DNA from: Gammaproteobacteria bacterium
Lineage (GTDB): Bacteria; Pseudomonadota; Gammaproteobacteria; GCA-001735895
NCBI GenBank assembly: GCA_050298595.1
Contig: JBNKUM010000094.1
Coordinates: forward strand, 64,001-128,000
DNA length: 64,000 nt
Direction: 5' to 3'
Part shown: positions 28,575 through 48,620 of the stretch, piece by piece
Position numbering within the stretch: position 1 is the first letter of the stretch
How the letters are laid out: every line of letters begins with the position of its first letter
The notes under the pieces: generated by a model
What the model was told of the DNA's origin: nothing
What the model saw: the letters and a program-made list of their open reading frames with translations, nothing else
Database searches by the model: none
Position numbers and translations under genes: made by a program

Positions 28575-30017
28575 ATGAACTCCGTATCAAACCAGCATCC
28601 CACTCTTTTATTGGTCGATGATGATTCGATTATTGCGGAGAGCCTCGAGTACGTCTTAAGTGATGAGTACGATGTAAAAATTGCTTATGATCGGCTCAAT
28701 TGTATCCAGGTTCTAGCAAGCTATCAGACGCCTCCCCAGCTGGCTCTGGTTGACCTGGGGCTACCCCCGGATACACATAAACCTGATGAAGGCTTTGCGG
28801 TCATTGAATATCTTCATGAACATTTTCCAATGACTCAGATTATTGTTTTATCGGGTCAGGATGAGCATAAATATGTCGAAAGTGCAAAAAAGCTGGGTGC
28901 TGTAGATTTTATTTCCAAGCCCTGTGATGTAGCAGCTCTTAAAGCGCGCTTAAGCCCCTATCTGAGCAAAGATAGAAATAATGAGCCTGAGCAACGACCG
29001 CTGAAGGGCATAGTCGGAGAGAGTCCTGCTATTGAATTATTACGCATGCAGATCAGACAGCTGGCCGACTCTCCTTACCCGGTGTTAATAGAAGGGGCCT
29101 CAGGTAGTGGTAAGGAGTTGGCAGCTCATTATTTGCATAACCTGAGTGTTAGAGAATCCAGTCCATTTTTTACATTGAATTGTGCGGCTTTTAATGGTGA
29201 GTTACTGGAGTCTCAGTTGTTTGGCCATGTGAGAGGTGCATTTACCGGGGCGACTGATTCAAAAAATGGTTTTTTTGAAGAGGCTGGTGATGGCACATTG
29301 CTGCTTGATGAAATCGCCGATTTACCGCTCGATTTGCAGGCAAAATTACTGCGCGTACTGGAAAACGGTGAATACTACCGCCTGGGTGAGACTCGTGCGC
29401 GCACCTCTACTGCTCGAGTGCTGGCAGCCAGCAACAAAGATTTGCTGGCAGCTATTGATAGCGGACAATTTAGAGAAGATCTCTACCATCGCCTCAGTGT
29501 ACTCACATTGCGAGTTCCCACTCTGCATGAGCGAAGAGAGGATAAGTTGGTATTACTTGACCATTTTCAGCAATTAGTAAACCCCCAAACTCAGGGCTTT
29601 GTACTGGATGAAGACGCTAAAGCACTGTGGATGGAGTATGAATTCCCCGGCAATGTGCGAGAATTGCGCAATATAGTTATTCGATTGTCAGCTAAGTATC
29701 CCGGCCAAACCATCAAGCGCTCGGTGCTGGAGATTGAGATGACAGGTAAAAGGGTGCGGAGTACTGGGCTGAACGAGGATGACATGTTCCTGAAAAACCT
29801 ACATTCAGGAGATTTTCAGTTAAATGAAGAGTTAAAGCGTGTGGAGCAGCACTATATCGAACTCGCGCTAAAAGAAAGTTCGAATAACATGAGTAAAGCG
29901 GCTGCGCTACTGGGTGTCAACCGCTCTACACTATATGGGCGAATGGAACGTACTGGAGAATTAAAAGCAACTGGTATGAGAAATGATCTGGATTTCAACA
30001 ATAAAGGGTTAGGGTGA
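28575..30017 (+). CDS. Sigma54-dependent response regulator (REC-AAA-Fis HTH; PilR/PrsR-like)
   Basis: LVDDD, DLGLPP receiver Asp, GASGSGKE, GAFTGA, FPGNVREL, AAALLGVNRSTLY. Confidence 0.93.
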   Translation: MNSVSNQHPTLLLVDDDSIIAESLEYVLSDEYDVKIAYDRLNCIQVLASYQTPPQLALVDLGLPPDTHKPDEGFAVIEYLHEHFPMTQIIVLSGQDEHKYVESAKKLGAVDFISKPCDVAALKARLSPYLSKDRNNEPEQRPLKGIVGESPAIELLRMQIRQLADSPYPVLIEGASGSGKELAAHYLHNLSVRESSPFFTLNCAAFNGELLESQLFGHVRGAFTGATDSKNGFFEEAGDGTLLLDEIADLPLDLQAKLLRVLENGEYYRLGETRARTSTARVLAASNKDLLAAIDSGQFREDLYHRLSVLTLRVPTLHERREDKLVLLDHFQQLVNPQTQGFVLDEDAKALWMEYEFPGNVRELRNIVIRLSAKYPGQTIKRSVLEIEMTGKRVRSTGLNEDDMFLKNLHSGDFQLNEELKRVEQHYIELALKESSNNMSKAAALLGVNRSTLYGRMERTGELKATGMRNDLDFNNKGLG

Positions 30018-30023
30018 TTACCT

Positions 30024-31670
30024 GTGTATGAAGCGTACTTTGGTTTAAATCGACAACCATTCCGTATCACACCGGATACTTCTCTATTCTTTGACGGTGG
30101 ACGCCGTGGAGATATTCTCGGAGCGCTGGTATATGCAGTGCACCGAGGGGAAGGCATCATTAAGGTGGTCGGCGAGGTCGGTAGTGGTAAAACCATGCTG
30201 TGCCGTATGTTGCAGATCGAATTACCAGATAGTGTTGAAATTATTTATATCGCTAATCCCAGTGTGTCCCCTGAAGATATCCTTTTTGTGATTGCGGATG
30301 AGCTGAAGTTTGATGTGAAGCGCGATGCCTCCAAGCATGAGCTGGTGAGCATGCTGCAGAATTATCTGCTGAAAAGGCACGCTGAAAACAAACAGGTGGT
30401 CTTGTTTGTTGAAGAGGCTCAGGGAATGCCGCTGGAAACGCTCGAAGAGATACGACTGTTATCGAATCTTGAAACTGATCGACACAAATTATTACAAATT
30501 ATCCTGTTCGGTCAGCCCGAACTGGATGAGAATCTGGCGAATAATTCTATTCGTCAACTTCGTGAAAGGATTACTCATGATTTTAATCTTTCGCCTTTAA
30601 CCAGTGAAGAGATTCACAAATACCTGAATTTCAGGATGCGAGAAGTCGGTTATACTGGCCCCGAACTTATCAGTAAGAAACTGGCTCATCAGATGGCGAA
30701 GCATTCGGCGGGCCTGTTAAGGCGTATAAATATTCTGGGCGATAAAATGCTTCTGTCGGCTTTTGCTGAAGGCACTCATAATATCACCACTAAGCATTTG
30801 ATGAACGCGGTGAAAGATAGTGGTTTTAGTGAGCTGCATTATAAACAGAACAAAACACTGTCAATAATATTAGTGTCAGGGTTGTTGACCCTGTTGATCT
30901 TGATGGCGGCCTACATCGCGTATAAGCAGGGTTTTGCACTGGCGGGGTTGGGTGCAGAAACAGCAGGATTATCTGAAATACCTAAAAAAGAAACCTTAGA
31001 AACCCCACTTGCCACAGCGTCTGTTGAAGAACAACCTAATAAGTCTGCCGTTCTATCAGAAATGCAGTCCTACGCGCAAGAGATAGATCATCAGTTGGCT
31101 GAACCTGAAGTTATTGAGCCAGAGCTAAAGGTAGCAGAAAGAATTAATACCGCTATAGAAGATGATAAGGCTAGCGAAAAACAAACTGTGCAGTTTCAAG
31201 GTGTAAATACCGATATTATAAATCCACTTGCTGAAATGCCGGATAGTTCAAAAAAAAATCAACACTCAGTGGTTAAACTTGATAAAGTTACAGAAAATCA
31301 GCCTCTTGAAGTAGTATCTTCAAGTGAAATGCCTCAAAACTATGAGGCATGGCTACAGAATAAAATTCAGCAGAGTATAAAGTGGTTAAAAGGGGCTGAT
31401 GCGCATGGTGTTTCAATTCAGGTCATGATGCGTAGCAAGGTGGCGATGAAAGAGCTTGCATTATATCTGCAAAATGACTGGCCTCTGGAGCTGGATAAAA
31501 CCTATATATATGAAGTCAAGTTGAAGGATAGAAGCATTTATCGGGTATTCTATGATGAGTATCCTAACGTTACTTTGGGGCATCAGAGCATTAAACAATT
31601 ACCCGAATCGGTGCGAGTCAATTCACCTTACTTGCATTCTATCAACCGGATGCAAGAAGAGTTGTTATAA
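30024..31670 (+). CDS. ExeA/MshM-like AAA ATPase with TM and C-terminal SPOR-like domain
   Basis: GEVGSGKT, EEAQ, RLLSNLET, FGQPEL; TM near aa 280-300; C-terminal SIQVM...YRVFY...LP..VR.NSPY. Confidence 0.85.
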   Translation: MYEAYFGLNRQPFRITPDTSLFFDGGRRGDILGALVYAVHRGEGIIKVVGEVGSGKTMLCRMLQIELPDSVEIIYIANPSVSPEDILFVIADELKFDVKRDASKHELVSMLQNYLLKRHAENKQVVLFVEEAQGMPLETLEEIRLLSNLETDRHKLLQIILFGQPELDENLANNSIRQLRERITHDFNLSPLTSEEIHKYLNFRMREVGYTGPELISKKLAHQMAKHSAGLLRRINILGDKMLLSAFAEGTHNITTKHLMNAVKDSGFSELHYKQNKTLSIILVSGLLTLLILMAAYIAYKQGFALAGLGAETAGLSEIPKKETLETPLATASVEEQPNKSAVLSEMQSYAQEIDHQLAEPEVIEPELKVAERINTAIEDDKASEKQTVQFQGVNTDIINPLAEMPDSSKKNQHSVVKLDKVTENQPLEVVSSSEMPQNYEAWLQNKIQQSIKWLKGADAHGVSIQVMMRSKVAMKELALYLQNDWPLELDKTYIYEVKLKDRSIYRVFYDEYPNVTLGHQSIKQLPESVRVNSPYLHSINRMQEELL

Positions 31671-31705
31671 ATTTGAATAGGTTCTTGTAAGGACTGGGAA
31701 AAACA

Positions 31706-33274
31706 ATGAAATATCTAATTTTTATAACTGTGCTATTTAGCCTCGTGTCCTGCCAGACAGTGACAAGGGGTACGGATGACCGTATGTCAGTGTCGACTGG
31801 GCATCTGGGGGATCCTGTTCCAGAGAAACAGTCAGTAAAGCAGGATATCCCAGCTGTGGTGGATCAGTTACCTATAGTTGAGGCACCAAAGCCCACTGAA
31901 AAGTTACAGGTTTTTACCGTAGTAGCAACCGATCTGCCAGCCAATGAATTGCTGTTTGCCTTAGCCCGAGATGCGCGCTTGAATTTGGATATCGACCCTG
32001 CAATTTCTGGAAATGTGAGCATTAACGCGATTGATCAGACACTGCCCCAGATCCTTAAAAGAATCTCTCGGCAAATTAGCTTACATTACTACATCGATGG
32101 CCCCAACCTGGTAGTAGAACGAGATTTACCGTTTATGCGTAACTACCCGATCAATTATCTGAATATGGAAAGAGCCACCTCTTCGAAAGTAGAGATCTCA
32201 TCCAAGATTTCTTCGACCGGATCAGGAACTGGTGGCGGTGGAGGTGGCGGTAGTGACTCTTCTACTGGTATCAGTAATAAGAGCGATAACAGCTTCTGGA
32301 AGACCCTGGAGACTAATCTTGCCGCTATCGCTAGTAGTAATGGGGCTAAGGGTGTTGTCATTGTGAATAAAGAGGGTGGCATGATATCGGTAATGACCAC
32401 TGCATCGAATCATGATTCCATTCAGGCTTTTATCGATCAGGTTATGTCCAGTGTACGCAAGCAGGTTCTAATCGAGGCAACAGTGGTAGAGGTTACGCTC
32501 AGCGATGAGTTTCAGGCGGGTGTTGACTGGTCAAGAATTGTAAATGGTAATGGCTGGGATATTACACAGAGTACTCTGGGTGGTGCACTGGGAACAGCCC
32601 CTTTTGTATCCGCAAGTTATTCTAATACCAGCTCAGGTAGTACGGTTACTGCAGCTATTAAAGCGCTTGATTCGTTTGGTGATGTATCCGTTATGTCTTC
32701 CCCCAAGATCATGGCTTTAAATAACCAGACATCAATATTGAAGGTGGTAGACAACGCTGTTTATTTTAATTTTGATGTGAGTACGACTGTGAGTGATACG
32801 GGAGTACCGAATACTACGTTTAATACAACGATAAATACTGTGCCTGTCGGCTTTGTCATGAATGTCACTCCTTTTATTACCTCTGACAATGAAGTGATAT
32901 TAAACGTACGACCAACTATTTCCAGAATACTGGGGTATGTAAATGATCCTAATCCTGAGTTAGCAGCTGCAAATGTTGAGTCTCAAATCCCTCAGATACA
33001 GGTACGTGAGATGGAATCGGTATTACGAGTTGCAGATGGTGATACAGCAGTAATAGGTGGTCTTATGGAAAATAGTATTGATCAAAACAGTGCGGGTATC
33101 CCTGGATTGCATGACGTGAAAGGTGTCGGCGTCCTTTTTGGAACACAGGCAAAAAATACTAACAAGACTGAACTGGTGATTTTTCTAAGACCCAGAATTA
33201 TCGATAGCGCAAGCCTGAATAGCGATCTGACTGATTTTCAACGCTACCTTAAACCCCGGCTGTTAGCAGAATAG
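31706..33274 (+). CDS. Second secretin (MshL-like lipoprotein)
   Basis: Lipobox LVSC; QVLIEATVVEV, SSPKIMALNNQ, NVRPTIS, VIGGLM, TELVIFLRP. Confidence 0.92.
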   Translation: MKYLIFITVLFSLVSCQTVTRGTDDRMSVSTGHLGDPVPEKQSVKQDIPAVVDQLPIVEAPKPTEKLQVFTVVATDLPANELLFALARDARLNLDIDPAISGNVSINAIDQTLPQILKRISRQISLHYYIDGPNLVVERDLPFMRNYPINYLNMERATSSKVEISSKISSTGSGTGGGGGGGSDSSTGISNKSDNSFWKTLETNLAAIASSNGAKGVVIVNKEGGMISVMTTASNHDSIQAFIDQVMSSVRKQVLIEATVVEVTLSDEFQAGVDWSRIVNGNGWDITQSTLGGALGTAPFVSASYSNTSSGSTVTAAIKALDSFGDVSVMSSPKIMALNNQTSILKVVDNAVYFNFDVSTTVSDTGVPNTTFNTTINTVPVGFVMNVTPFITSDNEVILNVRPTISRILGYVNDPNPELAAANVESQIPQIQVREMESVLRVADGDTAVIGGLMENSIDQNSAGIPGLHDVKGVGVLFGTQAKNTNKTELVIFLRPRIIDSASLNSDLTDFQRYLKPRLLAE

Positions 33275-33296
33275 CTACAACCAACTGGGGATTGCT

Positions 33297-35315
33297 ATGA
33301 GCTTACTATTAGATGCATTGAAAAAAGCCGCCGAGAAGAAGGCGCAGAAAGATGCTGAAAGCAAGGCGGTAGAAAATACTGAAGTTCTAACCAGAACTCG
33401 GGTAACCAACGATAAAACCATCGCTGATGAAACGCTAGCGATGACTGAGACTGAGCTGGATGCAACTAGCATTGATGCGACTCAACTGGATAAAACCTCA
33501 GCGGATACGACTTTAAAAATAGGCTCGACTCAAGTTGATGCTACTCAAGCTGATCATGAGTCTACCCTGGAATTAGATATCAAAAATCTGGATTTATCAA
33601 AGCTAGCTGCTGAGGAAAATGAAGTTATTTTTGATTCAGGTGCAGATGACTCTCTCTCTTTTATTGATGAGGAAGAGGTGATAACCGATGATAAGGCAGA
33701 GGATGAAACCATAGTATTAACGCCTGATGACATCACCGATTTTTTGGGTGACGGTAATTACCCGAAACAGACGAAACCGGAAAAAGTTGTGCCTCCTCCG
33801 GTCAGGCATGAAATATCAGACGATACAACCTTAACGAATCCAGATGCCATAAGCCTGACAGATATTGATCGGGATAGCCTGGATCTGGAACCAGTGGTTG
33901 ATAAGGATTATTCGCAGGCTCAGGATTCAACCAGAACTGAATCAGCAAACTATAATTCTTACGATGGCATTTTGTCTCGGCAAGAAAGGGGCCGGGGCAC
34001 GTCTTCTTCAGTACAGCCTGGTGAAGGTAGTCAGTCGACGATGATGAATGCTGATAGCACTTCAGTGGATATAGAAAAGTTAACCAATGATGAAACAGTA
34101 ACCATCAAAGATAGTACGTTCACTCGTACTTTTGCACCTGACAATTATGACAGGACCTTGATGAAGCTCACGGATAATAACGTATCACGGATATTCTCGG
34201 GGATGAGGTCAGAAACTGATTCTGTGATGACGCCAGACTATGCAAAAAAGATATTTATCACCAAGTCACGAGGTGTTAAAAATTATTACTACAAGGTCTA
34301 TGCCGGTATTGCGCTGTGTATTTTACTTGTTGTGGTTGTCTGGGGACTGTTTGAGATTCAATCTGAATCTGAGTCAATCGATAATAGTTTGATTGCTTTA
34401 AAGAGAGATCCCATGCCGGGCGTGATTAAACCTAAAAGGCAGTCCGAGCCGGATAATCTATTTTTATCTGCGCCAAAGGTTGATAATAATGCGATAAAGG
34501 TTATTGAAAAAGCAAGTAAAGTTGCTGATGGTGTTTCCGGTGAAGTTCAACAGAAAGGTTCAGCTATACAGGCAGAAGATATAGGTGAGGTCGCTGTTCA
34601 AAGCGTATCGCCAAACGATTCGGTCGATTCTCTGGGTAGCCAGCAGTCGAAGTCACCTGCTGTGAAAGCAAAAGCAAATTCAGTAAAAAAACAGCCATCA
34701 GCTCAGTCTAAACAGGCATCGCTGCAAATTTCTTCAAATAAACGAGTTTCTGAAAAAGATCAGATATTAGCTGAGGCTTATGCCGCCTATGAAGCTGGAG
34801 ATATAGATAAGGCCAGAAGGCAATATCAACAGGTAATAGCTCTTGACCCCGAGAACAGGGATGCTCTGTTAGGTCGTGCTGCTATTTATGTTTTAGATAA
34901 TCAATTTGAGAGAGCTATTACTCTCTATCAGAAACTTTTGCTTGCTAATCCTAAGGATGATCTGGCAATGACTTCGCTTATCTCGGTTGCTAATGTTGAC
35001 CCACAAACAGGGGAGACAGAAATAAAGCGCCTGTTGAATGACTTACCTGAATCACCTTACCTGCATTTTGCTTTAGGTAATATGTTTGGAAATCAGAATC
35101 GTTGGGCAGAAGCTCAAACTGAATATTTTAAGGCGTTACAAATTAAACCCGAAGATCCAAACTATGCCTATAACATGGCCGTTAGTCTCGAGCATTTACA
35201 AAAGTCAGATTCTGCAATTACGTTTTATGAACGGGCATTAAAAAATAAAATAAATGGTTTGGCGACTTTCAGTGAATCTTTAGTGGTACAACGTATCGAG
35301 GTGCTGAGTCAGTGA
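33297..35315 (+). CDS. Bitopic TPR protein (ExeB/MshN-like N-terminus, acidic Thr-rich cytoplasmic region)
   Basis: MSLLLDALKKA; about 320 aa acidic region; TM YAGIALCILLVVVVWGL; C-terminal TPRs. Confidence 0.8.
   Translation: MSLLLDALKKAAEKKAQKDAESKAVENTEVLTRTRVTNDKTIADETLAMTETELDATSIDATQLDKTSADTTLKIGSTQVDATQADHESTLELDIKNLDLSKLAAEENEVIFDSGADDSLSFIDEEEVITDDKAEDETIVLTPDDITDFLGDGNYPKQTKPEKVVPPPVRHEISDDTTLTNPDAISLTDIDRDSLDLEPVVDKDYSQAQDSTRTESANYNSYDGILSRQERGRGTSSSVQPGEGSQSTMMNADSTSVDIEKLTNDETVTIKDSTFTRTFAPDNYDRTLMKLTDNNVSRIFSGMRSETDSVMTPDYAKKIFITKSRGVKNYYYKVYAGIALCILLVVVVWGLFEIQSESESIDNSLIALKRDPMPGVIKPKRQSEPDNLFLSAPKVDNNAIKVIEKASKVADGVSGEVQQKGSAIQAEDIGEVAVQSVSPNDSVDSLGSQQSKSPAVKAKANSVKKQPSAQSKQASLQISSNKRVSEKDQILAEAYAAYEAGDIDKARRQYQQVIALDPENRDALLGRAAIYVLDNQFERAITLYQKLLLANPKDDLAMTSLISVANVDPQTGETEIKRLLNDLPESPYLHFALGNMFGNQNRWAEAQTEYFKALQIKPEDPNYAYNMAVSLEHLQKSDSAITFYERALKNKINGLATFSESLVVQRIEVLSQ
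33411..33555 (+). repeat. Degenerate 15-bp coding tandem repeat (D-x-T-x-x pentapeptide)
   Basis: DKTIA DETLA ... DATSI DATQL DKTSA DTTLK ... DATQA; DNA units such as ctggatgcaactagc / attgatgcgactcaa / ctggataaaacctca / gttgatgctactcaa. Confidence 0.75.
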
Positions 35316-37027
35316 AAACCGTACCCGGTACTAATAAGCCAAAAAGACTGGGCGAAATACTCATCGATGAAGGGGTTATCACCCCGGATCAATTAAATAT
35401 CGCGCTTACTGAACAAAAAAAAGTCGATTTGCCAATAGGTAAACTGTTGGTAAATCTGGGGTTTGCTACCGAATCTATAATGCGTTCAGCTCTAGGTGAA
35501 GCGCTAGAGCAGGACAGTGTTGATCTCTCCAGAGTAGTGCCTGATCCTGAGGCGATTAAGCTGATAGATTCAGACACTGCGCGTAAACACAAAGTTATCC
35601 CGCTTAATTACAATAGCATGACCGGCAGCTTAACCATCGCCATGTCGGATACTTTCAATCTATTCACGCTGGATCGTATTCGAATTCAGATTGGACAGCA
35701 TGTTGAAATCACACCAGTGCTGGCGGGTGAAACCGAGATTTCGAATGCCATAGATCAGTTCTATGGATATGAACTTTCAATTGATGGCATCCTGCGTGAA
35801 ATTGAAACTGGAGAAGCGGATTATACTAATTATCAGGGTGATATTGAAGAATACAGTCAGCCACTGGTAAGACTGGTGGATGTCATGATGGCCGATGCGG
35901 TAAAGCGAGGAGCCTCAGATATTCACTTTGAACCAGAGGAAAGCTTTCTACGTATCCGTTATCGAATTGATGGTGTATTGCGGCAGATCCGGAGTTTGCA
36001 TAAAACCTATTGGGCTGCAATAGCGGTACGGCTAAAGGTTATGGCGAATATGAATATTGCTGAAACTCGGGCTCCTCAGGATGGGAGGATTTCAAGAATA
36101 ATCATAGGTCGGCAGATTGATTTTCGTGTGGCATCCCAACCAACCATTCACGGTGAAAATATCGTTCTGCGTGTGCTGGACAGGGAAAAAGGGGTAATTC
36201 CTCTGGATGGGCTGGAACTACCCGATGCCTCGATGCGAATTTTGAAGATTATGATGGCTCGGCCTGAGGGGATAATTCTGGTAACCGGCCCGACGGGTAG
36301 TGGTAAGACAACTACGCTTTACTCGCTACTCAATCACATGAGTACAGAAAAAGTTAATATCATGACCCTGGAAGATCCTGTTGAATATCCTTTTCCATTG
36401 ATTCGGCAAACTTCAGTGAGTGATATGGCTGGGATGAATTTTGCTGACGGCATTAAGTCTTTAATGCGTCAGGATCCAGATATTATTCTGGTAGGTGAGA
36501 TTCGTGATGAAGATACTGCAGAGATGGCTTTTCGCGCAGCGATGACGGGGCATCAGGTCTATTCTACCTTGCATACAAATTCTGCCATTGGCGCGCTGCC
36601 TCGTTTAAGAGATATTGGTATTATGCCTGAAATTATGGCGGGTAATATTATTGGTGTCATAGCGCAACGCCTGGTGCGTAAATTGTGTAAATACTGTAAG
36701 GAGCCATATCATCCTGACGATTATGAGTTCAGGCTTTTATCAAATCCTGATGGCATCAGGCCCAATAAAATTTATCGCTCCAAAGGCTGCTCGGCCTGCG
36801 ATAACACGGGTTATAAAGGGCGTATGGCGCTGATGGAAATTCTCAAGATGAACTCTGAAATTGACGACATGCTGGCTCATGGTGCAACAACCAAAGAAAT
36901 AAAAGATGTGGCTTATCAACAGGGTTTTTTCACGCTTGCTGATGATGGAATTCGGCATGTTCTAAGCGGTGTGACTTCTATTGAAGAAATATCGCGAGTA
37001 ACTGACCTGACAGACAGGATGACCTAG
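35312..37027 (+). CDS. Second GspE/PilB-family assembly ATPase with MshEN-like N-terminus
   Basis: RLGEILIDEGVI...L...L..Q, GPTGSGKT, RQDPD, STLHTN, CKYC/CSAC. Confidence 0.93.
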   Translation: MKTVPGTNKPKRLGEILIDEGVITPDQLNIALTEQKKVDLPIGKLLVNLGFATESIMRSALGEALEQDSVDLSRVVPDPEAIKLIDSDTARKHKVIPLNYNSMTGSLTIAMSDTFNLFTLDRIRIQIGQHVEITPVLAGETEISNAIDQFYGYELSIDGILREIETGEADYTNYQGDIEEYSQPLVRLVDVMMADAVKRGASDIHFEPEESFLRIRYRIDGVLRQIRSLHKTYWAAIAVRLKVMANMNIAETRAPQDGRISRIIIGRQIDFRVASQPTIHGENIVLRVLDREKGVIPLDGLELPDASMRILKIMMARPEGIILVTGPTGSGKTTTLYSLLNHMSTEKVNIMTLEDPVEYPFPLIRQTSVSDMAGMNFADGIKSLMRQDPDIILVGEIRDEDTAEMAFRAAMTGHQVYSTLHTNSAIGALPRLRDIGIMPEIMAGNIIGVIAQRLVRKLCKYCKEPYHPDDYEFRLLSNPDGIRPNKIYRSKGCSACDNTGYKGRMALMEILKMNSEIDDMLAHGATTKEIKDVAYQQGFFTLADDGIRHVLSGVTSIEEISRVTDLTDRMT

Positions 37028-37031
37028 CTCT

Positions 37032-38237: not shown

Positions 38238-38243
38238 ATCATT

Positions 38244-40846: not shown

Positions 40847-40855
40847 ATTTAAGCT

Positions 40856-42373
40856 ATGAACACCCAATGTAATCAATCAGGATTCGCCTTATTGATTTTT
40901 GTTGTTGTGTTATTGGGTATCGCTGGTGTAGTCGGTTCTGAATTAATCCAGAGTCGGACGAAAACCGTGCAGGTCAAAAAAATGAAGCATGATCAGGCGG
41001 TGTTGCAAATGGCCAAGCAGGCCTTGTTAGGATATGCGGTTAAATATCATACTGCCCCAGGTGGGTTGTACGATATGGGGCGTTTACCCTGTCCTGATTA
41101 TACAGAACTCGGTGTTGCTTCAGAAGGTACTCAAGATGGGCCCTGTGGCGCAATCCATGTAAATGCCCAGGGTTTTCTGCCATGGAAAACATTGGGCCTT
41201 GATTCGATAAAAGACAGCAATGGCGACTGCCTGTGGTATGTAGTATCGGGTGATTACAAAGATAGAGCCGAGGCCCGCATGTTAAATGAAGATACCAATG
41301 GATTATTAAAGGTACAAGATGAGAATGGACAGCTGTATAACGGGGCTAATCCAGATGACCGACCTATCGCTCTGATCATTGCTCCAGGGCCCCTTCTTTC
41401 TGGTCAGGATCGCACGCCTTCTAATAATGCCTTGACGCATTGTCGTGGTAATTATGGAGATGAAAATGAATATCTTGAATCAGGAGGTAGCGTTAATTAT
41501 ACCACCAACCATGTGCCTACTGCCGATACGATCTGGACCTATGTGTATGGAACACTGAATAATGATCTGGATAATACTAATTATAATGATCGTATGGTAT
41601 GGATCACCAAATCGGAATACTGGGATGCTGTGAAGGCTCAGGGGGATCTGGAAGCTGCGGATCCCAGCAAAGAAATAAATATATTAACGCAAAAATTAGC
41701 CCAATGCCTGGCTGGATATGCAAATGATATTTCAAATGAAAATCACTGGTTGCCCTGGCCAGCACCAATAGGTTTGGCCGATTATCGAACAGACAGTCTC
41801 TATGCAGATCAGGATGATCCATCTGATTTGATGGGGCGTTTCCCTACAGATATAACTAATAGTAATACAAAGGAAGGTAATGAAACCTCTTCTGCTATAT
41901 CAGTCTTCCCCGATATGACAGATATACTTTCAACTTGCCTGTTGCCGGATGATAAGATGCTCTGGCAAAACTGGAAAGATCACTTTTTCTATGTAGTTTC
42001 GGAAGAGTTTAAGATAGATGGGGCTACAGGTGGTGACTTAACCACAAGGTGTTCGTCAGGAAAATGTGTCACTATAGCTGGTCTTTCTGATGATCTGGCT
42101 GGTATAGTTTTCTATGCAAATAGTGTGGAAATTGGTGAATCGAGGAGTGCGGGGAATGTGGGAACAGATCCTGATGAAAAACAGGATATTACCCAGTATC
42201 TGTCTTCAATAGCTTCACAACCCACAATTTGGAATGCCCACCAATATCCGAATGATGCAGCTTATACAGGTGCTGGAGGTGTAGTGAATCAGTATTACCG
42301 GGATCTTGATGATATCACTTACTGTATCAAAGTGAGTTCATCTACAAAATTGGAGGTGTCTGATTGTAGCTGA
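40856..42373 (+). CDS. Large pilin-like protein lacking E5 (GspK/PilX-like; possible tip protein)
   Basis: QSG|FALLIFVVVLLG; GRLPCPD, GFLPWKTLGL; many Cys and Asp. Confidence 0.7.
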   Translation: MNTQCNQSGFALLIFVVVLLGIAGVVGSELIQSRTKTVQVKKMKHDQAVLQMAKQALLGYAVKYHTAPGGLYDMGRLPCPDYTELGVASEGTQDGPCGAIHVNAQGFLPWKTLGLDSIKDSNGDCLWYVVSGDYKDRAEARMLNEDTNGLLKVQDENGQLYNGANPDDRPIALIIAPGPLLSGQDRTPSNNALTHCRGNYGDENEYLESGGSVNYTTNHVPTADTIWTYVYGTLNNDLDNTNYNDRMVWITKSEYWDAVKAQGDLEAADPSKEINILTQKLAQCLAGYANDISNENHWLPWPAPIGLADYRTDSLYADQDDPSDLMGRFPTDITNSNTKEGNETSSAISVFPDMTDILSTCLLPDDKMLWQNWKDHFFYVVSEEFKIDGATGGDLTTRCSSGKCVTIAGLSDDLAGIVFYANSVEIGESRSAGNVGTDPDEKQDITQYLSSIASQPTIWNAHQYPNDAAYTGAGGVVNQYYRDLDDITYCIKVSSSTKLEVSDCS

Positions 42374-43131
42374 TGAGTATTAAGTTTAAGAAAACTCGGG
42401 GCTTTACATTAATAGAGATCGCTATTGTTCTGATAGTGCTTACTATACTCCTTGGTTATACCGTCGCGATGGTGCCAGTTCAGCAGGAGCTTAAGCAATA
42501 TCGTAAAGCTGACAAAGAGATGGATAAAATCCTGGATGCGCTGTATGCCTACGCTCAGGTTAATGGTCGGTTGCCGTGTGCTGATGATATGGCTAGTGCT
42601 GATGGGGTTGCCGATCCAGAAACAGCGACCACTTCCTGTACCGTATGGTACGGATATATACCGAGTAAAACGCTTGGGCTGGAAGGGAATTTAAATGCTC
42701 AGTTTTCTATACTAGATCCCTGGGGGCAGCCTTACCGGTATCAAGTTACTCAAGCTAATGGAGGTGGCTTTGTCAATGATATACAAGCTATCGGCATTCC
42801 AAGTTTTGCACCTGATTTAGAGGTTTGTACAATCCATCCAGCAGTTGGTGCTGAAGAACCTTCGTGTGGAAGTGCAGCTAAAACTGTAGCAAAAGGCATT
42901 CCTGCTGTAGTTCTTTCTCTTGGTAAAGATATAGGGCGAAACCCTTCAGGCATCCAGAAGGAGAACCTGGACAATGGGGATGATAGTAATAGTAATGGTA
43001 GTTTTGAGGATTATGTGTTTGTAAAATCAACCCGTAGCAATGCCAGCGGTGATGAGTTTGACGATGTGGTTAAATGGATCGTACCCAATGTCCTTTACTC
43101 AAAAATGATCGATGCTGGTAAATTACCCTAA
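42373..43131 (+). CDS. Prepilin-type minor pilin
   Basis: RG|FTLIEIAIVL; NGRLPC, DPWGQPYRY, FDDVVKW. Confidence 0.85.
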   Translation: MSIKFKKTRGFTLIEIAIVLIVLTILLGYTVAMVPVQQELKQYRKADKEMDKILDALYAYAQVNGRLPCADDMASADGVADPETATTSCTVWYGYIPSKTLGLEGNLNAQFSILDPWGQPYRYQVTQANGGGFVNDIQAIGIPSFAPDLEVCTIHPAVGAEEPSCGSAAKTVAKGIPAVVLSLGKDIGRNPSGIQKENLDNGDDSNSNGSFEDYVFVKSTRSNASGDEFDDVVKWIVPNVLYSKMIDAGKLP

Positions 43132-43146
43132 GGAACAAAGTTGGGC

Positions 43147-43905
43147 ATGAATCAAAACGCCGCTGGTTTTACCCTGATAGAAGTTTCCCTGGTTTTACTG
43201 ATTGTGACTATCCTGCTAGGGTATTCACTTGGGGTGTATCCAGTGCAGCAGGAGTTGAAACAATACAGAGCAGCCCAAACTGAAATGGATTCCATTATCC
43301 AGCGCCTGTTATATTTCGCCGAGATTAATGGCCGTTTACCCTGTCCTGATACTAGTACCGGCGGTACTGTAAATGGTCAGGAAGATCTAAATGGCCCTGG
43401 AAAATGTAGATCTATATATGCTTATCTACCGGGCAGAGATCTGGGAATGCAGGGCAACTACGATTCAAACAATCGCTTACTCGATCCCTGGGGGCAACCG
43501 TATAGGTATGGTGTTTCAAGTTCTACCAGTAATGCGGCGGATAATTTTGTTGATCGGAATCAGATTCGAGCTCAGGGTGTTGATGGAATGAATGGTGATA
43601 TTTTTATCTGTGATGATAGTAACACTACCGGTGCTAATGCAAACTGTTCAACAGTATCCGGCAATGAAGTGATGAGTCGTGTTGCAGCGATTGTAGTTTC
43701 TACCGGTAAGGACAGGGGGCGTACTCCCACTTCCAATATACAGGCTGAGAATCAGGATAACTTTAATAATTCATCGACTGCAGATCATGTCTACATATAT
43801 GCTCAACGTAGTGATGCTAGTGGTGCTGAATATGATGATCTGGTCAAGTGGTTACCTACAAACCTTTTACTATCAAAGCTTATCGAAGCGGGCCAGCTGC
43901 CCTAA
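43147..43905 (+). CDS. Prepilin-type minor pilin, tandem paralogue of the previous gene
   Basis: AG|FTLIEVSLVL; QQELKQYR, NGRLPCPD, DPWGQPYRY, YDDLVKW, AGQLP. Confidence 0.85.
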   Translation: MNQNAAGFTLIEVSLVLLIVTILLGYSLGVYPVQQELKQYRAAQTEMDSIIQRLLYFAEINGRLPCPDTSTGGTVNGQEDLNGPGKCRSIYAYLPGRDLGMQGNYDSNNRLLDPWGQPYRYGVSSSTSNAADNFVDRNQIRAQGVDGMNGDIFICDDSNTTGANANCSTVSGNEVMSRVAAIVVSTGKDRGRTPTSNIQAENQDNFNNSSTADHVYIYAQRSDASGAEYDDLVKWLPTNLLLSKLIEAGQLP

Positions 43906-43920: not shown

Positions 43921-45603
43921 TTATTCACCTATATGTTGAAACAGGCTAAAGCAAACCCTGCCCTTTTCATTGCTTGCTAATTCCAGCTCAAAATTAAAAG
44001 ACCTTGCCATAATTGCCGATTGATACAGGCCTATACCCATGCCTTCGCCTGAGGATACGGGTTTTATAAAAAGGTTACTTTCGAGGTCTGCTTTCACCTG
44101 ACTTCCATTGTCACACACTGTGACAACTATCATTTCAGTGTTGGCAGTAATATCAATGATTACCTGGCTGACCTCATTTTTATTTTGAGTGTTCGATAAC
44201 AGGTTGTTGATGACACTATCAAATAATTCACAGGGGATGGCATGGTTAAGGCTGATATCCTGATTAACGATTAACCATGGGTAGCTATGTTCAGATTGAA
44301 AGCGCTTAAGCCAGTCCTTAATACTGATGATTTTGATGGATGTTGATATCTCCGGTGATTTTAGCTTTTCAAGGGTTGACTCAAGTCTACTGCTAATCTG
44401 ATCCAGGTTTTGCCTAAGTAGTTTATTGGATTTTTGTTTTTTGTCATCTGAAGTGGCTTGCACAATATCAAGAGAGGTTTTAATGGACTGCAGAATATTT
44501 TTTATGTCATGCGTCAATCGGGCGCCGGTGTGGTGAATGGTTTCAAAATGCTCCTCAGCGCGTATTTTATCCTGATTCAATTTGGCTAGATAAAATTGAT
44601 AAGCCATTCGAATCAGGAGAATAGTATGTTGTCGTAAAGCTTTTCCTGGGTCGGATTTGAAGTAAATGGTGACTAAAATTTGTTCCGATAGCTGGTGACG
44701 GAATACGGCGCCATTTCTGGGGCCTGATGCAATGGTAAAGCCTTTGAATTGCCATTGAATTCCATTTAGCCAATCGTTTTCAATCAAGTGTTCACAGGCT
44801 GCCTGTAAGAATTCAGATGCTGATATATAGGGCTCTTCTATCAGTGTGGTTAAGGTGTTTATCCAGATTTCAAAAGGCCCTCCAATAGTCATTGCGTAAC
44901 GGTTCCAGAGCACTCCCAGACCTGAATAACCAACGCCAGGGTTCCAGAACCAACTGATACCGATGGAAAGTGTTGATACAATGAAAACCGTTAAAAGCAG
45001 CCCATCGAGGTAGTCAACACCATATAAAAGGTTGATCACTATACCGCCGAGTAAGGCAAGGAATATTAATGTAGCGGTTAGCAGACCATGCATAAACTCT
45101 ATCTGACTGCGCGGTTGCTGTGTTCTATCAGGGCTAGGGGCAAAGAAAAACCCCAGGATTGGGATTAATAACAGGGTTTGAATTAATGAGGTAAATTGAA
45201 CAGGAAGATTAATTTGCGCAAAGGTATCCGGGATGATGCCAATCGCCATCTCAATGATTAGAATAGACATGGCAAGTAAATCAAAAGCTCTTGAAGTATT
45301 CTGGCTAAATAAACGGCTTCCAAGAAGTCCAGAAACAATCAGGCTGAACAGGATGAGTGATTCGTTTTGATAGTAATAACTGAAAGTTAGCAGCAATATT
45401 ATTAGTATAAAGGATGGAAGTGTATTGATTTTTGTGTCTTTTCCCCATAATGGTTGCCACATAAAAAATAAACCATATAGTACTAACACCATCGAAAACT
45501 GGATAAACTTGTCTGAAAATGTCCAGGTGAGACTGTGAAGTAAAAGTAATATGGAGGCAAGTATTTGCTGCTCTAATACTATTAATAAGTTAACTAGCTT
45601 CAT
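43921..45603 (-). CDS. Multi-TM sensor histidine kinase
   Basis: About 7 TM segments; H-box LTHDIKN, N-box NNLLSN, DNG, GMGIGL. Confidence 0.88.
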   Translation of the reverse strand: MKLVNLLIVLEQQILASILLLLHSLTWTFSDKFIQFSMVLVLYGLFFMWQPLWGKDTKINTLPSFILIILLLTFSYYYQNESLILFSLIVSGLLGSRLFSQNTSRAFDLLAMSILIIEMAIGIIPDTFAQINLPVQFTSLIQTLLLIPILGFFFAPSPDRTQQPRSQIEFMHGLLTATLIFLALLGGIVINLLYGVDYLDGLLLTVFIVSTLSIGISWFWNPGVGYSGLGVLWNRYAMTIGGPFEIWINTLTTLIEEPYISASEFLQAACEHLIENDWLNGIQWQFKGFTIASGPRNGAVFRHQLSEQILVTIYFKSDPGKALRQHTILLIRMAYQFYLAKLNQDKIRAEEHFETIHHTGARLTHDIKNILQSIKTSLDIVQATSDDKKQKSNKLLRQNLDQISSRLESTLEKLKSPEISTSIKIISIKDWLKRFQSEHSYPWLIVNQDISLNHAIPCELFDSVINNLLSNTQNKNEVSQVIIDITANTEMIVVTVCDNGSQVKADLESNLFIKPVSSGEGMGIGLYQSAIMARSFNFELELASNEKGRVCFSLFQHIGE

Positions 45604-45636
45604 TACAATTTATGGGTCATATTTAAGGAGTTATAG

Positions 45637-46416
45637 GTGTTTTCACAAACTATAGCATTGTTTAGATATTTACTGAGCGGTCTTATAAATACTCGGTTAT
45701 TAATACTATTGCTGGGTATTACTCTTACAGGCATTTTGTCAGGCCAATATATTTCTGAATTAGCTATCATCAATAGCAAACTTATCGGATTGGCTTTTAC
45801 TGCTGAGTTGTTGCGTTACTGCCTTTTGTTTTTCATGGTCGTCTCTATAGCCTATCGTATCTCTCAAGATTATGAGCTTGGTCAATTTGATCGATTGTTG
45901 TCTATGCCTATCACAAGAGCTCAGTATGTTTTTTCCCAACTATTAGTCATTCTAACTGCCGGGTTTATATTTTCGATTCCAGTCATTGTCTCTATGCCTT
46001 TTTTTGCGTCATTTCCACTGGCGGTATACTGGTTTTTATCGGTTTATCTGGAGTTGATACTGATAGGTCTGTTTACAATGCTGGCTATTCTGAGCCTGGA
46101 AAAATTGCCAGTAGCTATTATTTTTAGTGTTGCAGCCTATTTGCTATCAAGATTAATTCCACAGATTAATAGCGCTCTCGAACAATCTGTTGATTATTAC
46201 TCTGATGAAGTGACTTTCAGGTTTTCTGAATATCTGTTTAAGTTATTACAGTATGTTTTACCAACCTCGAGCTCTTTTGCACAAAATAATATATTGTTTG
46301 AGCTGGTTGTTAACTGGGAAAATCTTATCGAACAATCTCTGTCTGTTTTTATTTATGGTGGATTCTTGTTATTTATCAGTTTGATTGATTTTTATCGAAA
46401 GGAATTTAATCATTGA
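45637..46416 (+). CDS. ABC-2 type transporter permease (PilI-like)
   Basis: About 6 TM; LLSMPITRAQYV motif; AAGGAG RBS. Confidence 0.75.
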   Translation: MFSQTIALFRYLLSGLINTRLLILLLGITLTGILSGQYISELAIINSKLIGLAFTAELLRYCLLFFMVVSIAYRISQDYELGQFDRLLSMPITRAQYVFSQLLVILTAGFIFSIPVIVSMPFFASFPLAVYWFLSVYLELILIGLFTMLAILSLEKLPVAIIFSVAAYLLSRLIPQINSALEQSVDYYSDEVTFRFSEYLFKLLQYVLPTSSSFAQNNILFELVVNWENLIEQSLSVFIYGGFLLFISLIDFYRKEFNH

Positions 46417-47141
46417 GAAATAATTCCTACCGAAGCGTTAAACAGGTTCCATTGCTAATCCTATGCATGGCAGTGTTTTTCATGCTACTTCAATTAGAGT
46501 TGAGCATTAAGCAAAAAGAAAATAATAAGTATTCTTTTCAGCAATTAACTAAGCCTCAAAATGTAGACTTTTACAGGATGATCTCGTTAGGCTCGAATCG
46601 GTTGATGAGTTATCTGTTAGCGATAGGTCTTCAATTACATGATAATCAAAAGGGTAAGCATGTCTCTTACTCACGTCTTGATTATGATTTTCTTAGCCAA
46701 TGGTTGCGTACTGTTTACTTGCTTAATCCTGACTCTGAATACCCCGCTTTTTTAGCCTCTAGAGTTTATAGTCAGGTAAAAGAAAAAAATAAAGTAAGAT
46801 TAATGATTCAACAGATAGAGTTGATGTTCGAATCAAACCCGCAGAAGTTTTGGCGTAGAATGACTGAAGCCTGTTTGCTAGCCAAACATCAGCTTAAAGA
46901 CCTGGATCTGGCGCTTAATCTCGCGAAGCAGATTTCATCATTACCACAGTCAATAAAAATGCCGTTTTGGGCAAGAGATATGAAGCTGATATTACTGGAT
47001 GAACTTGATCAGAACGAATCGGCTGCACTGTTAATCGTGAGCCTGTTACAAAGTGGTCAAATTATAGATACAGATGAGAAAAGATTTTTAGAATTCAGGC
47101 TGTCGAAAATTAAACAGAAGATGTCTGAATTTGGACAGTGA
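46413..47141 (+). CDS. Membrane-anchored helical/TPR-like protein (PilG/XapA-like by context)
   Basis: N-terminal TM; LDY..L..WL...LNP..EYP; PFWARDM; lies between permease and pilin. Confidence 0.55.
   Translation: MRNNSYRSVKQVPLLILCMAVFFMLLQLELSIKQKENNKYSFQQLTKPQNVDFYRMISLGSNRLMSYLLAIGLQLHDNQKGKHVSYSRLDYDFLSQWLRTVYLLNPDSEYPAFLASRVYSQVKEKNKVRLMIQQIELMFESNPQKFWRRMTEACLLAKHQLKDLDLALNLAKQISSLPQSIKMPFWARDMKLILLDELDQNESAALLIVSLLQSGQIIDTDEKRFLEFRLSKIKQKMSEFGQ
47101..47137. promoter_or_regulatory. Tandem putative enhancer sites (TGT-N10-ACA x2) for a sigma54 activator
   Basis: TGTCGAAAATTAAACA (47101-47116) and TGTCTGAATTTGGACA (47122-47137), starts 21 bp apart. Confidence 0.6.
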
Positions 47142-47200
47142 TAGCGCTTTTGGCTGGTCTTTGAAACTATCTTGTCTGAAAACCCAATGATTATAAGTTT

Positions 47201-47216
47201 TGGTATATTATATGCA
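47201..47216 (+). promoter_or_regulatory. Sigma54 (-24/-12) promoter of the pilin gene
   Basis: TGGTAT-ATTAT-ATGCA: exact GG-N10-GC spacing, ending about 30 nt before the ATG, GGAG RBS between. Confidence 0.75.
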
Positions 47217-47245
47217 TAATATAGTGTAGTTGATTGGAGAATGGT

Positions 47246-47857: not shown

Positions 47858-47883
47858 GGGATTCCCGGGTTAAGATTCTAATT

Positions 47884-47902
47884 ACCCGCCACTGTGGCGG
47901 GT
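47884..47902 (+). terminator. GC-rich hairpin with weak U tract between pilin and ABC ATPase
   Basis: ACCCGCCA-ctg-TGGCGGGT followed by TATT; ends 4 nt before the next ATG. Confidence 0.6.
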
Positions 47903-47906
47903 TATT

Positions 47907-48620
47907 ATGATTAAAATCGATAAATTACAATTTTCATACAATTCCCATTCAGTTCTGAATAGCCTGTCGTTACTTATTGAAAAAAACCATTATTTCGCCT
48001 TAGCTGGATTGAATGGTGCGGGTAAGACCACTCTTATTCGTTTAATAGTGGACTTGTTAAGGTCTCCGAATAAATCCGATATACAGATTAACGGGCTCAG
48101 TAGCTGGCGTGTTGATAGCAGAAAGAGTCTGATCTACCTGCCTGAGAAATTCAAACTTAGCTCAAATACTACTGCACTGGAATATTTTAAGTTGCTATCA
48201 GGCGTGTATCGGCAAAACCTTGATCGAAAGAAACTTGAATTCCTTTGCGGCCAGTTAGATTTCCCTGTTGACTCATTGGCTAAAAGGTCAGCAACCTACT
48301 CAAAGGGTATGCTACAAAAGGTGGGATTAATGGGCTGTTTTATTCTGGATTTACCTATTATGTTGCTTGATGAGCCTTTGAGTGGTCTAGACCCAAAGGC
48401 AAGACTCCAGGTAAAAAAACTTCTGTTAGAAGAAAAGAAAAAAACTAGCAAAACACTATTTTATAGCACCCATATGCTTTCGGATGTTGATGAGCTTTGT
48501 GATAGCTTCGGTATTTTGCATAACGGTAGCTTAAAGTTTCTCGGTACCCCTATGGATTGCCTGTCAACTTATGAGTCTGACACTCTTGAGCAGGCATACA
48601 TGAAGTGCATTGAAGCGTAG
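47907..48620 (+). CDS. ABC transporter ATP-binding protein (PilH-like)
   Basis: GLNGAGKTT, YSKGMLQK, LLDEPLSGLDP, STH. Confidence 0.92.
   Translation: MIKIDKLQFSYNSHSVLNSLSLLIEKNHYFALAGLNGAGKTTLIRLIVDLLRSPNKSDIQINGLSSWRVDSRKSLIYLPEKFKLSSNTTALEYFKLLSGVYRQNLDRKKLEFLCGQLDFPVDSLAKRSATYSKGMLQKVGLMGCFILDLPIMLLDEPLSGLDPKARLQVKKLLLEEKKKTSKTLFYSTHMLSDVDELCDSFGILHNGSLKFLGTPMDCLSTYESDTLEQAYMKCIEA

Follow-up and report, generated by a model that had tools for sequence, protein, structure and literature searches.

The gene cluster and its genomic setting

The DNA considered here is a stretch of 64,000 nucleotides (the window) of contig JBNKUM010000094.1 from a gammaproteobacterium (assembly GCA_050298595.1), in which positions 28575-48620 hold 17 genes, all intact according to an open reading frame (ORF) check, that may encode a complete type IV filament machine of a lineage without a name (table 1). 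The preliminary description of this DNA had reported a 20-kb cluster with paralogues of the core parts of such a machine, four pilin-like genes, a regulator, a kinase and the parts of an ATP-binding cassette (ABC) transporter, and all of them were found in place and intact. The first twelve genes (28575-43905) all point the same way on the plus strand and are closely packed, either overlapping slightly or separated by no more than 35 bases; they are followed by one minus-strand kinase gene and then by four plus-strand genes. The order ExeA-like ATPase, lipoprotein secretin, tetratricopeptide repeat (TPR) protein, assembly ATPase and platform (M-L-N-E-G), on which a likeness to the mannose-sensitive haemagglutinin (MSH or MSHA) pilus had been based, was also seen. 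The ABC parts had been presented as a trio of ATPase, permease and accessory protein; the three parts are there, the permease being called on sub-threshold matches, but they are not contiguous, as the order is PERM, ACC, MAJ, ABC, with a pilin gene separating the accessory protein from the ATPase. Domains were assigned by Pfam and NCBIfam scans of the window proteins against the family cut-offs, which yielded no family for six products (I2, J2, K2, BIG, PERM and ACC).

Directly upstream lies a canonical msh cluster, which encodes an MshL (287.9 bits), an MshM-like protein, a TPR protein, an MshE-like ATPase, a platform and pilins of its own. The genome assembly (5.49 Mb, 119 contigs) holds six assembly-type ATPases and three PilT-like genes. 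Besides a complete gspC-N operon and a pilB-pilC-pilD locus, it has a TfpB-type ATPase and a further cluster of secretin, ATPase, platform and pilins. As had been noted before, neither a prepilin peptidase nor PilT is found within the window; the sole PF01478 match of the genome is on contig C8, beside pilB-pilC, and the PilT-like genes are on contig C85, so that this system must share its peptidase, and a retraction ATPase if it uses one, with others. MSH, as described in PMC6668835, is a single locus that likewise does not include peptidase and retraction ATPase.

Table 1. Genes and sites of the cluster and its flanks. Last column: related loci with a match, for upstream genes (of 51) or downstream genes (of 45), as explained in the text.
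Feature	Assignment	Position	Strand	Evidence	Loci
msh	canonical msh cluster	15595-28471
RR	sigma54-dependent response regulator	28575-30017	+	Response_reg + Sigma54_activat 5.2e-61 + HTH_8 (Fis-type HTH)
M2	ExeA/MshM-like AAA ATPase	30024-31670	+	AAA_22 9.8e-29
L2	lipoprotein secretin	31706-33274	+	Secretin 2.9e-38 + Secretin_N_2	50/51
N2	bitopic TPR protein in MshN/TadD position	33297-35315	+	TPR families at residues 490-650	47/51
E2	T2SSE assembly ATPase with MshEN	35312-37027	+	T2SSE 8.3e-125, MshEN 7.1e-18	50/51
G2	inner-membrane platform	37032-38237	+	T2SSF 1.8e-46, two stretches	50/51
I2	PilM/GspL-like assembly protein, 526 residues	38244-39824	+	fold match	43/51
J2	small bitopic protein in MshJ/PilO/GspM position	39811-40416	+	N-terminal transmembrane segment	48/51
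K2	small exported protein, motif LF(S/T)T.QER	40379-40846	+	signal-like start	10/51 (by BLAST)
BIG	505-residue Cys-rich pilin-like protein	40856-42373	+	QSG/FALL start, motif GRLPCPD
PA	prepilin with GRLPC.D	42373-43131	+	N_methyl 9.3e-6	44/45
PB	prepilin, paralogue of PA	43141-43905	+	N_methyl 6.2e-5; 41% identity to PA
HK	histidine kinase	43921-45603	-	HATPase_c 2.3e-7	17/45
PERM	putative ABC-2-type permease	45637-46416	+	5 hydrophobic segments	17/45
ACC	membrane-anchored helical accessory protein, unnamed family	46413-47141	+	no Pfam or NCBIfam family	17/45
Promoter	-24/-12 sigma54-type promoter-like site	47201-47216	+	TGGTATATTATATGCA, 30 bases ahead of likely MAJ ATG
MAJ	candidate major pilin, ~200 residues	47234-47857	+	N_methyl 1.1e-6	32/45
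Hairpin	G+C-rich, terminator/attenuator-like	47884-47902	+	8 pairs, 6 G-C; between MAJ stop and ABC start
ABC	ATP-binding subunit of ABC-2-type exporter	47907-48620	+	ABC_tran 5.8e-18	12/45
Wzy_C-TPR	637-residue membrane protein	48633-50546	-	Wzy_C (O-antigen ligase) domain, C-terminal TPR repeats
ntrC region	ntrC and adjoining ORFs	50563-54727	-

Phylogenetic position of the core components

The relationship of the cluster to other type IV filament systems was assessed from trees of the ATPase, secretin and platform (IQ-TREE quick searches, LG+G4). For the ATPases all long T2SSE proteins of the window's genome and of five carrier genomes were used; GspE, PilB and TfpB were labelled by NCBIfam matches above cut-off, and MshE by its place in a canonical cluster or by 51-53% identity to the canonical MshE. 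In the resulting tree (65 rows, rooted on PilT, with every second, i.e. 30 of 59, of the locus E2 sequences) E2 forms a clade of its own (36 rows; Shimodaira-Hasegawa-like approximate likelihood ratio test, SH-aLRT, 100), as do MshE (3 rows, 100), GspE (5 rows, 99), PilB (3 rows, 100) and TfpB (4 rows, 100). E2, MshE and GspE, along with a few unlabelled ATPases, make up a joint clade (92), with PilB and TfpB outside it. In the secretin tree (48 rows labelled by adjacency to the labelled ATPases, including every second qualifying locus row, 24 in all) L2 (30 rows, 99) is sister to MshL (3 rows, 100) in a joint clade (99) that is set apart from GspD (100) and the remaining secretins. The platform tree (37 rows, with every third locus sequence) separates G2 (25 rows, 100) from PilC (5 rows, 99, two of the labels, those of L161 and L164, being guessed), GspF (4 rows, 100) and MshG (3 rows, 100).

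Thus, E2, L2 and G2 are not found in the MshE/L/G, GspE/D/F or PilB/C clades, in agreement with the expectation of the preliminary description that the core would fall outside the characterised ones. Its statement that the system does not match MSHA goes too far: the ATPase and the platform do have clades of their own, but the secretin is sister to MshL, M2 is 40% identical to the window's MshM over 266 residues, and the M-L-N-E-G order, the MshEN motif of the ATPase, the single locus and the missing peptidase are likewise traits of MSH.

Sequence identities within the genome are 27% between L2 and MshL, 37% between E2 and MshE, 35% between E2 and PilB, 43% between E2 and GspE (ATPase core only) and 25-28% between G2 and each of MshG (25%), GspF and PilC, while N2, I2, J2, K2 and the pilins had no match in this comparison. 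True MshE orthologues of Betaproteobacteria are 51-53% identical to the window's MshE, as opposed to 37% for E2. In two Gallionellaceae genomes (G061 and G062) a true MshE/L/G set and the present system coexist on different contigs, which indicates two old paralogous lineages rather than a local duplication. The cluster does abut the canonical msh cluster and the two have the M-L-N-E-G order in common, as would be expected of a decaying or silent duplicate of the MSHA operon with no function of its own. Such an origin is extremely improbable and already contradicted by the conservation described below, since none of the 17 ORFs is disrupted, the genes are no more than 25-40% identical to their msh neighbours whereas E2 orthologues from other orders reach 53-63%, synteny is kept in 43-50 of 51 loci, and there are genomes in which the system does not adjoin msh genes, as the separate contigs of G061 and G062 illustrate.

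The ATPase tree also contains a clade (SH-aLRT 95) of T2SSE ATPases of 780-810 residues with N-terminal extensions of ~200 residues (L123 and L126-L130, from G061, G062 and G065), with four copies in one Gallionella genome and none reaching an NCBIfam cut-off. Two ATPases of 684-710 residues (L111 of G065 and L114 of G063) form a clade sister to MshE (SH-aLRT 92), a 457-residue secretin (L146) being encoded 12 kb from one of them; judging from the tree, they may represent yet another MSH-related lineage.

Conservation of the cluster as a unit

BIG was found to have 221 relatives at E<=0.001 in a large protein collection, none of them with an informative name. When one genome per species was scanned with the family alignment of BIG, 441 candidate stretches were obtained; 393 of them, from Gamma- and Betaproteobacteria, encode a BIG relative. 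Locus counts were taken from the best 80 by BLASTP of all ORFs against the window proteins, upstream genes being scored in the 51 loci that extend at least 9 kb upstream from BIG, and downstream genes in the 45 that extend at least 6.5 kb downstream from it. On the gammaproteobacterial side the 80 loci represent unclassified members, Woeseiaceae, Thiotrichales (Beggiatoa, Thiomargarita) and Arenicellales, and on the betaproteobacterial side Gallionella, Sideroxydans, other Nitrosomonadales, Burkholderiales and one member of Zoogloeaceae; a few bins labelled Polaribacter, Gemmatimonadales and Enterobacteriaceae were taken as mis-binned or mislabelled. Among the relatives of the window's genome a BIG match was obtained in 35 of 61.

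The core genes are kept, in order, in 43-50 of the 51 loci (table 1), and the gene set thus recurs as a unit. K2 was recovered by BLAST in 10 of 51 loci, but a small exported ORF of the K2 kind, with the motif LF(T/S)TPxER, lies between J2 and BIG in 57 of 67, so that K2 appears to be conserved yet fast-evolving. Downstream of BIG, PA is nearly always present, and MAJ, HK, PERM, ACC and ABC are found all together in 11 of 45 loci; with 17 of 45 loci carrying it, the kinase/ABC module is optional and does not define the system. A sigma54 activator is encoded in the cluster in all five loci that were extended upstream, in three of them as an orthologue of RR (47-50% identity) directly upstream of M2, the other two having a nearby sigma54 activator of 391 residues (one of the Woeseiaceae) and RR after PA (Gallionella), respectively.

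The source names of the cluster proteins do not go beyond the generic 'type IV pilus assembly protein PilB/PilC', and a full-text literature search returned no description of the cluster as a system in its own right. 'Rearranged' MSH clusters, function unknown, are mentioned for Sideroxydans ES-1 and Gallionella ES-2 in PMC3770913, and may or may not correspond to it; the part of the supplements of PMC6668835 that was searched contains no match for Sideroxydans or Gallionella.

Components of the assembly machine

M2 scores 222 bits with TIGR03015, below the cut-off of 324.5. Its transmembrane (TM) segment (residues 281-299) is followed by a C-terminal extension of ~250 residues with no Pfam match and no detected peptidoglycan-binding domain; the idea, formed by eye, of a SPOR domain in this part was dropped for want of Pfam support. 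L2 narrowly passes the MshL model (TIGR02519, 253.5 bits versus a cut-off of 250.2), and its start, MKYLIFITVLFSLVSC, reads by eye as a likely lipobox. In N2 an acidic N-terminal region of ~330 residues precedes the TM segment (residues 334-352).

For I2 an AlphaFold model was built from 13 family members (predicted local distance difference test, pLDDT, 80.3). Its N-terminal part is an alpha/beta domain of ~290 residues and its C-terminal part a beta-beta-alpha-beta-beta domain, the two being connected by a long membrane-spanning helix. Foldseek searches of the Protein Data Bank (PDB) matched the model with PilM (5eou_B, E 7.8e-10), the cytoplasmic domain of EpsL (1yf5, 7.3e-8) and GspL (4pht_Y, 3.4e-7). 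Because of these matches the modelled I2 is assigned as a one-chain protein of the PilM-PilN/GspL type, with predicted cytoplasmic actin-like, TM and periplasmic domains. Profiles of I2 and J2 gave hhalign probabilities below 5% against the genome's MshI, MshJ, MshK and GspL, J2 having no match to MshJ or MshK, in a comparison that is uninformative because the templates were single sequences. K2 has sub-threshold Pfam matches only (T2SSB, E 0.075).

Pilin-like proteins

The four pilin-like proteins are held together by regions and motifs of their N-terminal parts. BIG and PA have the first ~110 residues in common (E 1e-4), and BIG, PA and PB the motif GRLPC(P/A)D followed by C...G(F/Y)(L/I)P.KTLGL; PA and MAJ have the first 75 residues in common (E 3e-8), up to (R/Q)LP(C/G)(A/D)D. 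On this basis BIG, PA, PB and MAJ are considered one family. The claim that these pilins are distinct was sustained by tblastn searches of the whole genome, the adjacent msh pilins included, in which MAJ, PA and BIG found at E<1e-4 only themselves, PB and one orphan MAJ paralogue. PDB sequence searches with MAJ and with the BIG profile returned pilin N-termini or nothing.

BIG is devoid of Glu5 and has ten invariant or near-invariant Cys residues in the family alignment; it is a candidate tip subunit. In its model (pLDDT 76.3) the N-terminal helix is 57 residues long, and the fold matches were weak and of pilin type only (EpsG, 4lw9_A, Z 4.9 over 89 residues; PilE, Z 4.5), with nothing at E<=0.001 in Foldseek searches of the PDB and nothing at Z>=5 in the structure comparison. 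MAJ is likely to start at ATG 47246 with the leader MNTFKNKG/FTLVE, and the family alignment reveals D63, R64, Y65, P69, G70, D71, E107, H114, D171 and D172 as invariant. The best NCBIfam matches of MAJ, PA and PB are GspG and GspH, to the N-termini only and below threshold.

The orphan MAJ paralogue (G000:C68:15380-16036; 218 residues, 53% identity, leader MNNKLYSG/FTLVE) is located just downstream of four genes resembling an ABC exporter of the MacAB/LolCDE type, and has no match to the strict sigma54 pattern used below in its upstream region.

Predicted regulation of expression and of the motor

RR remains under every NCBIfam equivalog cut-off. HK has ~8-9 hydrophobic segments in its first 220 residues, a sub-threshold HisKA match (E 0.013) and a match to PrsK (TIGR02916, 60 bits versus a cut-off of 300) in the C-terminal part alone. 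The promoter-like site ahead of MAJ, TGGTATATTATATGCA, is one of just two matches to a strict sigma54 pattern in the window. Across loci, the strict pattern is found near the MAJ start in 14 of 53 genes (between positions -200 and +60 relative to the annotated start), against a background of 0.011 per 260 nt measured over the 80 loci, from which ~0.6 matches would be expected for 53 genes. An earlier scan with a loose consensus (2 mismatches) was uninformative (29 matches versus 37 expected) and was replaced by the strict pattern. A promoter and a hairpin so placed are what would be expected if a major pilin gene were strongly expressed under the control of a pair like PilS/PilR, transcription reading through into what may be a helper gene.

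The sequence of E2 suggests control by cyclic diguanosine monophosphate (c-di-GMP). It scores 57.1 bits with the c-di-GMP motif model NF053729 (cut-off 38), and its residues 12-35, RLGEILIDEGVITPDQLNIALTEQ, are an exact fit to the strict 24-residue motif of PMC5013675; after a spacer of 5 residues, residues 41-64 fit the relaxed motif except for the last position, Ala.

The ABC module

PERM has sub-threshold matches to ABC2_membrane families (ABC2_membrane_4, E 0.079), and the best NCBIfam matches of ABC are DrrA, lantibiotic-protection and GldA-type ATPases, all under cut-off. ACC is similar to unnamed Atlas clusters (0.98) and to TPR clusters of Bdellovibrionota (0.89), the latter being a lead only, and a profile search gave 160 matches; among the matches listed (120) all are named 'hypothetical protein'. 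In a Burkholderiales carrier (L157, G065:C7:10000-19000) an ABC ATPase 36% identical to that of the window is encoded directly upstream of RR instead of after the pilin, which indicates that the module has been rearranged there and not lost.

Kinase and ABC trio might be unrelated neighbours, e.g. a lipid, glycan or peptide exporter with its own sensor, outside the filament system. In Geobacter the ABC genes next to pilA are part of a polysaccharide locus. Here the ABC ATPase has the general character of ABC-2 exporters and lies upstream of the regulator in the Burkholderiales genome, and kinase and ABC trio were not found in 28 of 45 core-bearing loci. These facts are outweighed, in our opinion, by the pilin gene sitting between ACC and ABC in the window, by the 11 of 45 loci, with E2 identities down to ~61%, in which all five genes occur together and in an unchanged order, by the equal counts of HK, PERM and ACC, which are found all three together in 16 loci, and by the lack of paralogues of ACC and HK elsewhere in the genome. 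Furthermore, the composition equals that of the Myxococcus pilA-pilGHI operon (PMC3546991), so that chance neighbourhood is judged quite unlikely.

In that operon, MXAN_5780-5783 encode the permease PilI, the ATPase PilH, the accessory factor PilG and the pilin PilA (PMC3546991). PilGHI are presented as essential for pilin translocation and piliation in PMC3724824, and their transport role as being without experimental support in a statement of PMC6060248; the question goes back to Myxococcus work of 1998 cited in PMC3546991 and PMC3724824, and has been open since. A dedicated ABC transporter and two-component system had been proposed as traits distinguishing the present system: they are present, but they have this precedent in Myxococcus (PMC3546991) and are optional (17 of 45 loci).

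Flanking genes and other filament loci of the genome

Downstream of the cluster lie the Wzy_C-TPR gene and then ntrC, beyond which two minus-strand ORFs were taken as ntrB and glnA by position and size. The Wzy_C-TPR product could, we presume, be a pilin O-glycosyltransferase of the PglL/TfpO kind; as a component of the system it was ruled out, being present in 0 of the 80 related loci. An NtrC-like gene on the opposite strand just past the cluster recurs in several gammaproteobacterial loci (L019-L021, L027, L028, L030, L045, L058, L059 and L068), with 60-96% identity to the window's ntrC (43% in L021), and an NtrC-like ORF is found in 15 of 45 loci overall, so that the cluster and the nitrogen regulator operon seem to have stayed linked across large distances.

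Elsewhere in the genome, a short contig (L100, G000:C116:1-9838) carries a 612-residue ATPase, sister to GspE in the tree, with a platform, four pilins and an 816-residue ORF just upstream, and no secretin match on that contig. The TfpB-type ATPase (NF053534, 889 bits versus 850) of L101 (G000:C102:1-19000) is encoded beside several lipoprotein-like genes.

Proposed function and mechanism

By taking into account the gene content and its conservation, the separate clades, the fold of I2 and the c-di-GMP and promoter motifs, all of them observed, we infer the functional steps outlined here, the choice of MAJ as the major pilin, and a pilus over a secretion machine. With a probability of about 0.6, the cluster encodes a complete type IV filament machine that represents a distinct, conserved and unnamed lineage, known from genes alone and with MSH as its nearest relative, and that makes a c-di-GMP-gated and sigma54-regulated adhesive pilus.

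In this machine the four related prepilins would be processed by the shared prepilin peptidase, PilD, encoded elsewhere. G2, the PilM/GspL-like I2, J2 and K2 would constitute the inner-membrane assembly complex, where hexameric E2 would power the polymerization of MAJ, probably being switched on by c-di-GMP through its MshEN domain. Polymerization may start from a priming or tip complex made of the Cys-rich BIG, PA and PB, and the fibre would exit through the lipoprotein secretin L2, in the assembly of which M2 and N2 may assist. HK and RR would drive the pilin gene from the -24/-12 promoter as PilS-PilR do with pilA, whereas the ABC-2 trio bracketing the pilin gene may be an optional pilin-handling helper, like PilGHI in Myxococcus. 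The output would most likely be an adhesive surface pilus under high c-di-GMP.

Several observations weigh against this proposal or parts of it. The MshE, MshL and MshG references are few (3 each, none from Vibrio) in trees that are quick searches, and inside the joint clade the order of E2, MshE and GspE is not resolved. M2 has the ExeA/GspA-type architecture, with TM segment and periplasmic extension, rather than the short MshM form, and the assignment of J2 and K2 to the PilO/GspM and PilP positions is based only on their topology and location. As to the motor, motif II of E2 ends in Ala where the relaxed motif needs Q/N/K/R/Y/W/S/T (PMC5013675), so that binding of c-di-GMP by E2 is not certain. 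Of the 45 loci, 13 gave no match for MAJ and 28 none for the kinase/ABC module. The likeness of PERM, ACC and ABC to PilGHI is one of composition and placement. Finally, the MAJ family has no conserved Cys, and has invariant acidic residues and a G/D/N-rich loop. These are traits of the pseudopilins of type II secretion systems (T2SS), and would favour secretion.

The main rival is indeed a T2SS-like machine, in which MAJ would form a short pseudopilus in the periplasm, driving folded substrates out through L2, with the Cys-rich BIG as a cap in the manner of GspK. GspK, like BIG, has no Glu5, and further support comes from GspG and GspH as best (sub-threshold) NCBIfam matches of MAJ, PA and PB, from the invariant acidic residues and absent conserved Cys of MAJ, from the ExeA/GspA architecture of M2, from the one-chain GspL layout of I2 with EpsL/GspL among its fold matches, and from the 43% identity of E2 to the genome's GspE over the ATPase core. 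However, E2, L2 and G2 lie outside the GspE, GspD and GspF clades, the secretin is sister to that of a pilus (MshL), and a c-di-GMP switch of the MshEN type is known mainly from MSHA. No GspC-like gene was recognized in the cluster and no candidate substrate gene is conserved across loci, and the genome already contains a full gspC-N operon. A secretion machine is regarded as unlikely.

A bolder reading, which we consider possible but on balance doubtful, is that the system would deserve the rank of a separate family of the superfamily, at the level of MSH, T2SS and type IVa pili (T4aP), with a pilin family of its own (R/Y-x-LP-C/G-x-D after the N-terminal helix), a disulfide-rich tip adhesin of 500 residues and, in one branch, an ABC exporter and a kinase with many TM segments that would handle and sense the membrane pilin pool. 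It is widespread in iron- and sulfur-oxidizing and sediment Proteobacteria, in which it could mediate attachment to minerals or particles.

The type IV filament families that have been studied are a handful, and this complete machine is present, unnamed, in hundreds of species-level genomes. Its description would add a branch beside MSH and show how assembly and pilin modules are swapped while motor and pore are kept, and the pilin-linked ABC trio would provide a second, independent setting in which to study an exporter role of the PilGHI type. Surface attachment is ecologically relevant for its carriers, which include iron oxidizers (Gallionella, Sideroxydans), large sulfur bacteria and Woeseiaceae.

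Comparison with known systems

E2 is not of the TadA type of Tad pili (TIGR03819, 49 bits versus a cut-off of 373), and has long N-terminal domains of the GspE/PilB type. With respect to T4aP, E2 and G2 are outside the PilB (100) and PilC (99) clades, TIGR02538 scores 517 versus a cut-off of 676 and the PilQ model 110 versus 284, and I2 resembles PilM in fold only. The PrsK-PrsR pair and associated ATPase of PEP-CTERM/exosortase systems (TIGR02916, TIGR02915, TIGR03015) provide the best NCBIfam models for HK and M2, and the second best, after NtrC, for RR. However, the scores are far under the cut-offs (60 versus 300 for HK, 319 versus 503 for RR, 222 versus 324 for M2) and the cluster contains neither exosortase nor PEP-CTERM genes.

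The Myxococcus xanthus pilS-pilR-pilA-pilG-pilH-pilI locus is similar in that the gene of the major pilin is co-located with those of an ABC ATPase, a permease and an accessory factor, and in that the module is under a sigma54 two-component system, here as judged from the promoter motif. It differs in that the core machine is MSH-like in the present case and not T4aP, and in the gene order, which here is permease, accessory protein, pilin and ATPase. With T2SS the system has in common a GspL-like single-chain assembly protein (I2, by predicted fold), an ExeA-like ATPase with TM and periplasmic parts, GspG-like pilin N-termini and a large pilin-like protein that, for the missing Glu5, recalls GspK. 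In contrast, E2, L2 and G2 are outside the GspE, GspD and GspF clades, TIGR02533 and TIGR02517 give 511 versus a cut-off of 630 and 151 versus 351, respectively, family scans recognized no GspC, and three accessory pilin-like proteins are encoded instead of GspH-I-J-K.

The closest resemblance is to MSH, the model of which has mshA, E, G, L and M as mandatory genes (PMC6668835). The two systems have in common the M-L-N-E-G order from ExeA-like ATPase to platform, a secretin that is sister to MshL and narrowly passes its model, an M-type ATPase (M2 being 40% identical to MshM), an MshEN c-di-GMP motif on the assembly ATPase and a single locus with no peptidase or retraction ATPase (PMC6668835). 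The differences are the separate clades of E2 and G2, not nested in MshE or MshG, the 526-residue one-chain PilM/GspL-like I2 versus a 304-residue MshI, the position of the assembly genes, after E and G here and before L in MSH, the large extra regions of M2 and N2, pilins unrelated to the msh pilins at E<1e-4, the 505-residue Cys-rich pilin-like protein, the sigma54 regulator and the optional kinase and ABC module. The proposal of an uncharacterized, conserved machine stands, and its placement outside the known families does not: on present sequence comparisons the system is not a wholly new machine but belongs to the type IV filament superfamily as a sister lineage of MSH that has no name.

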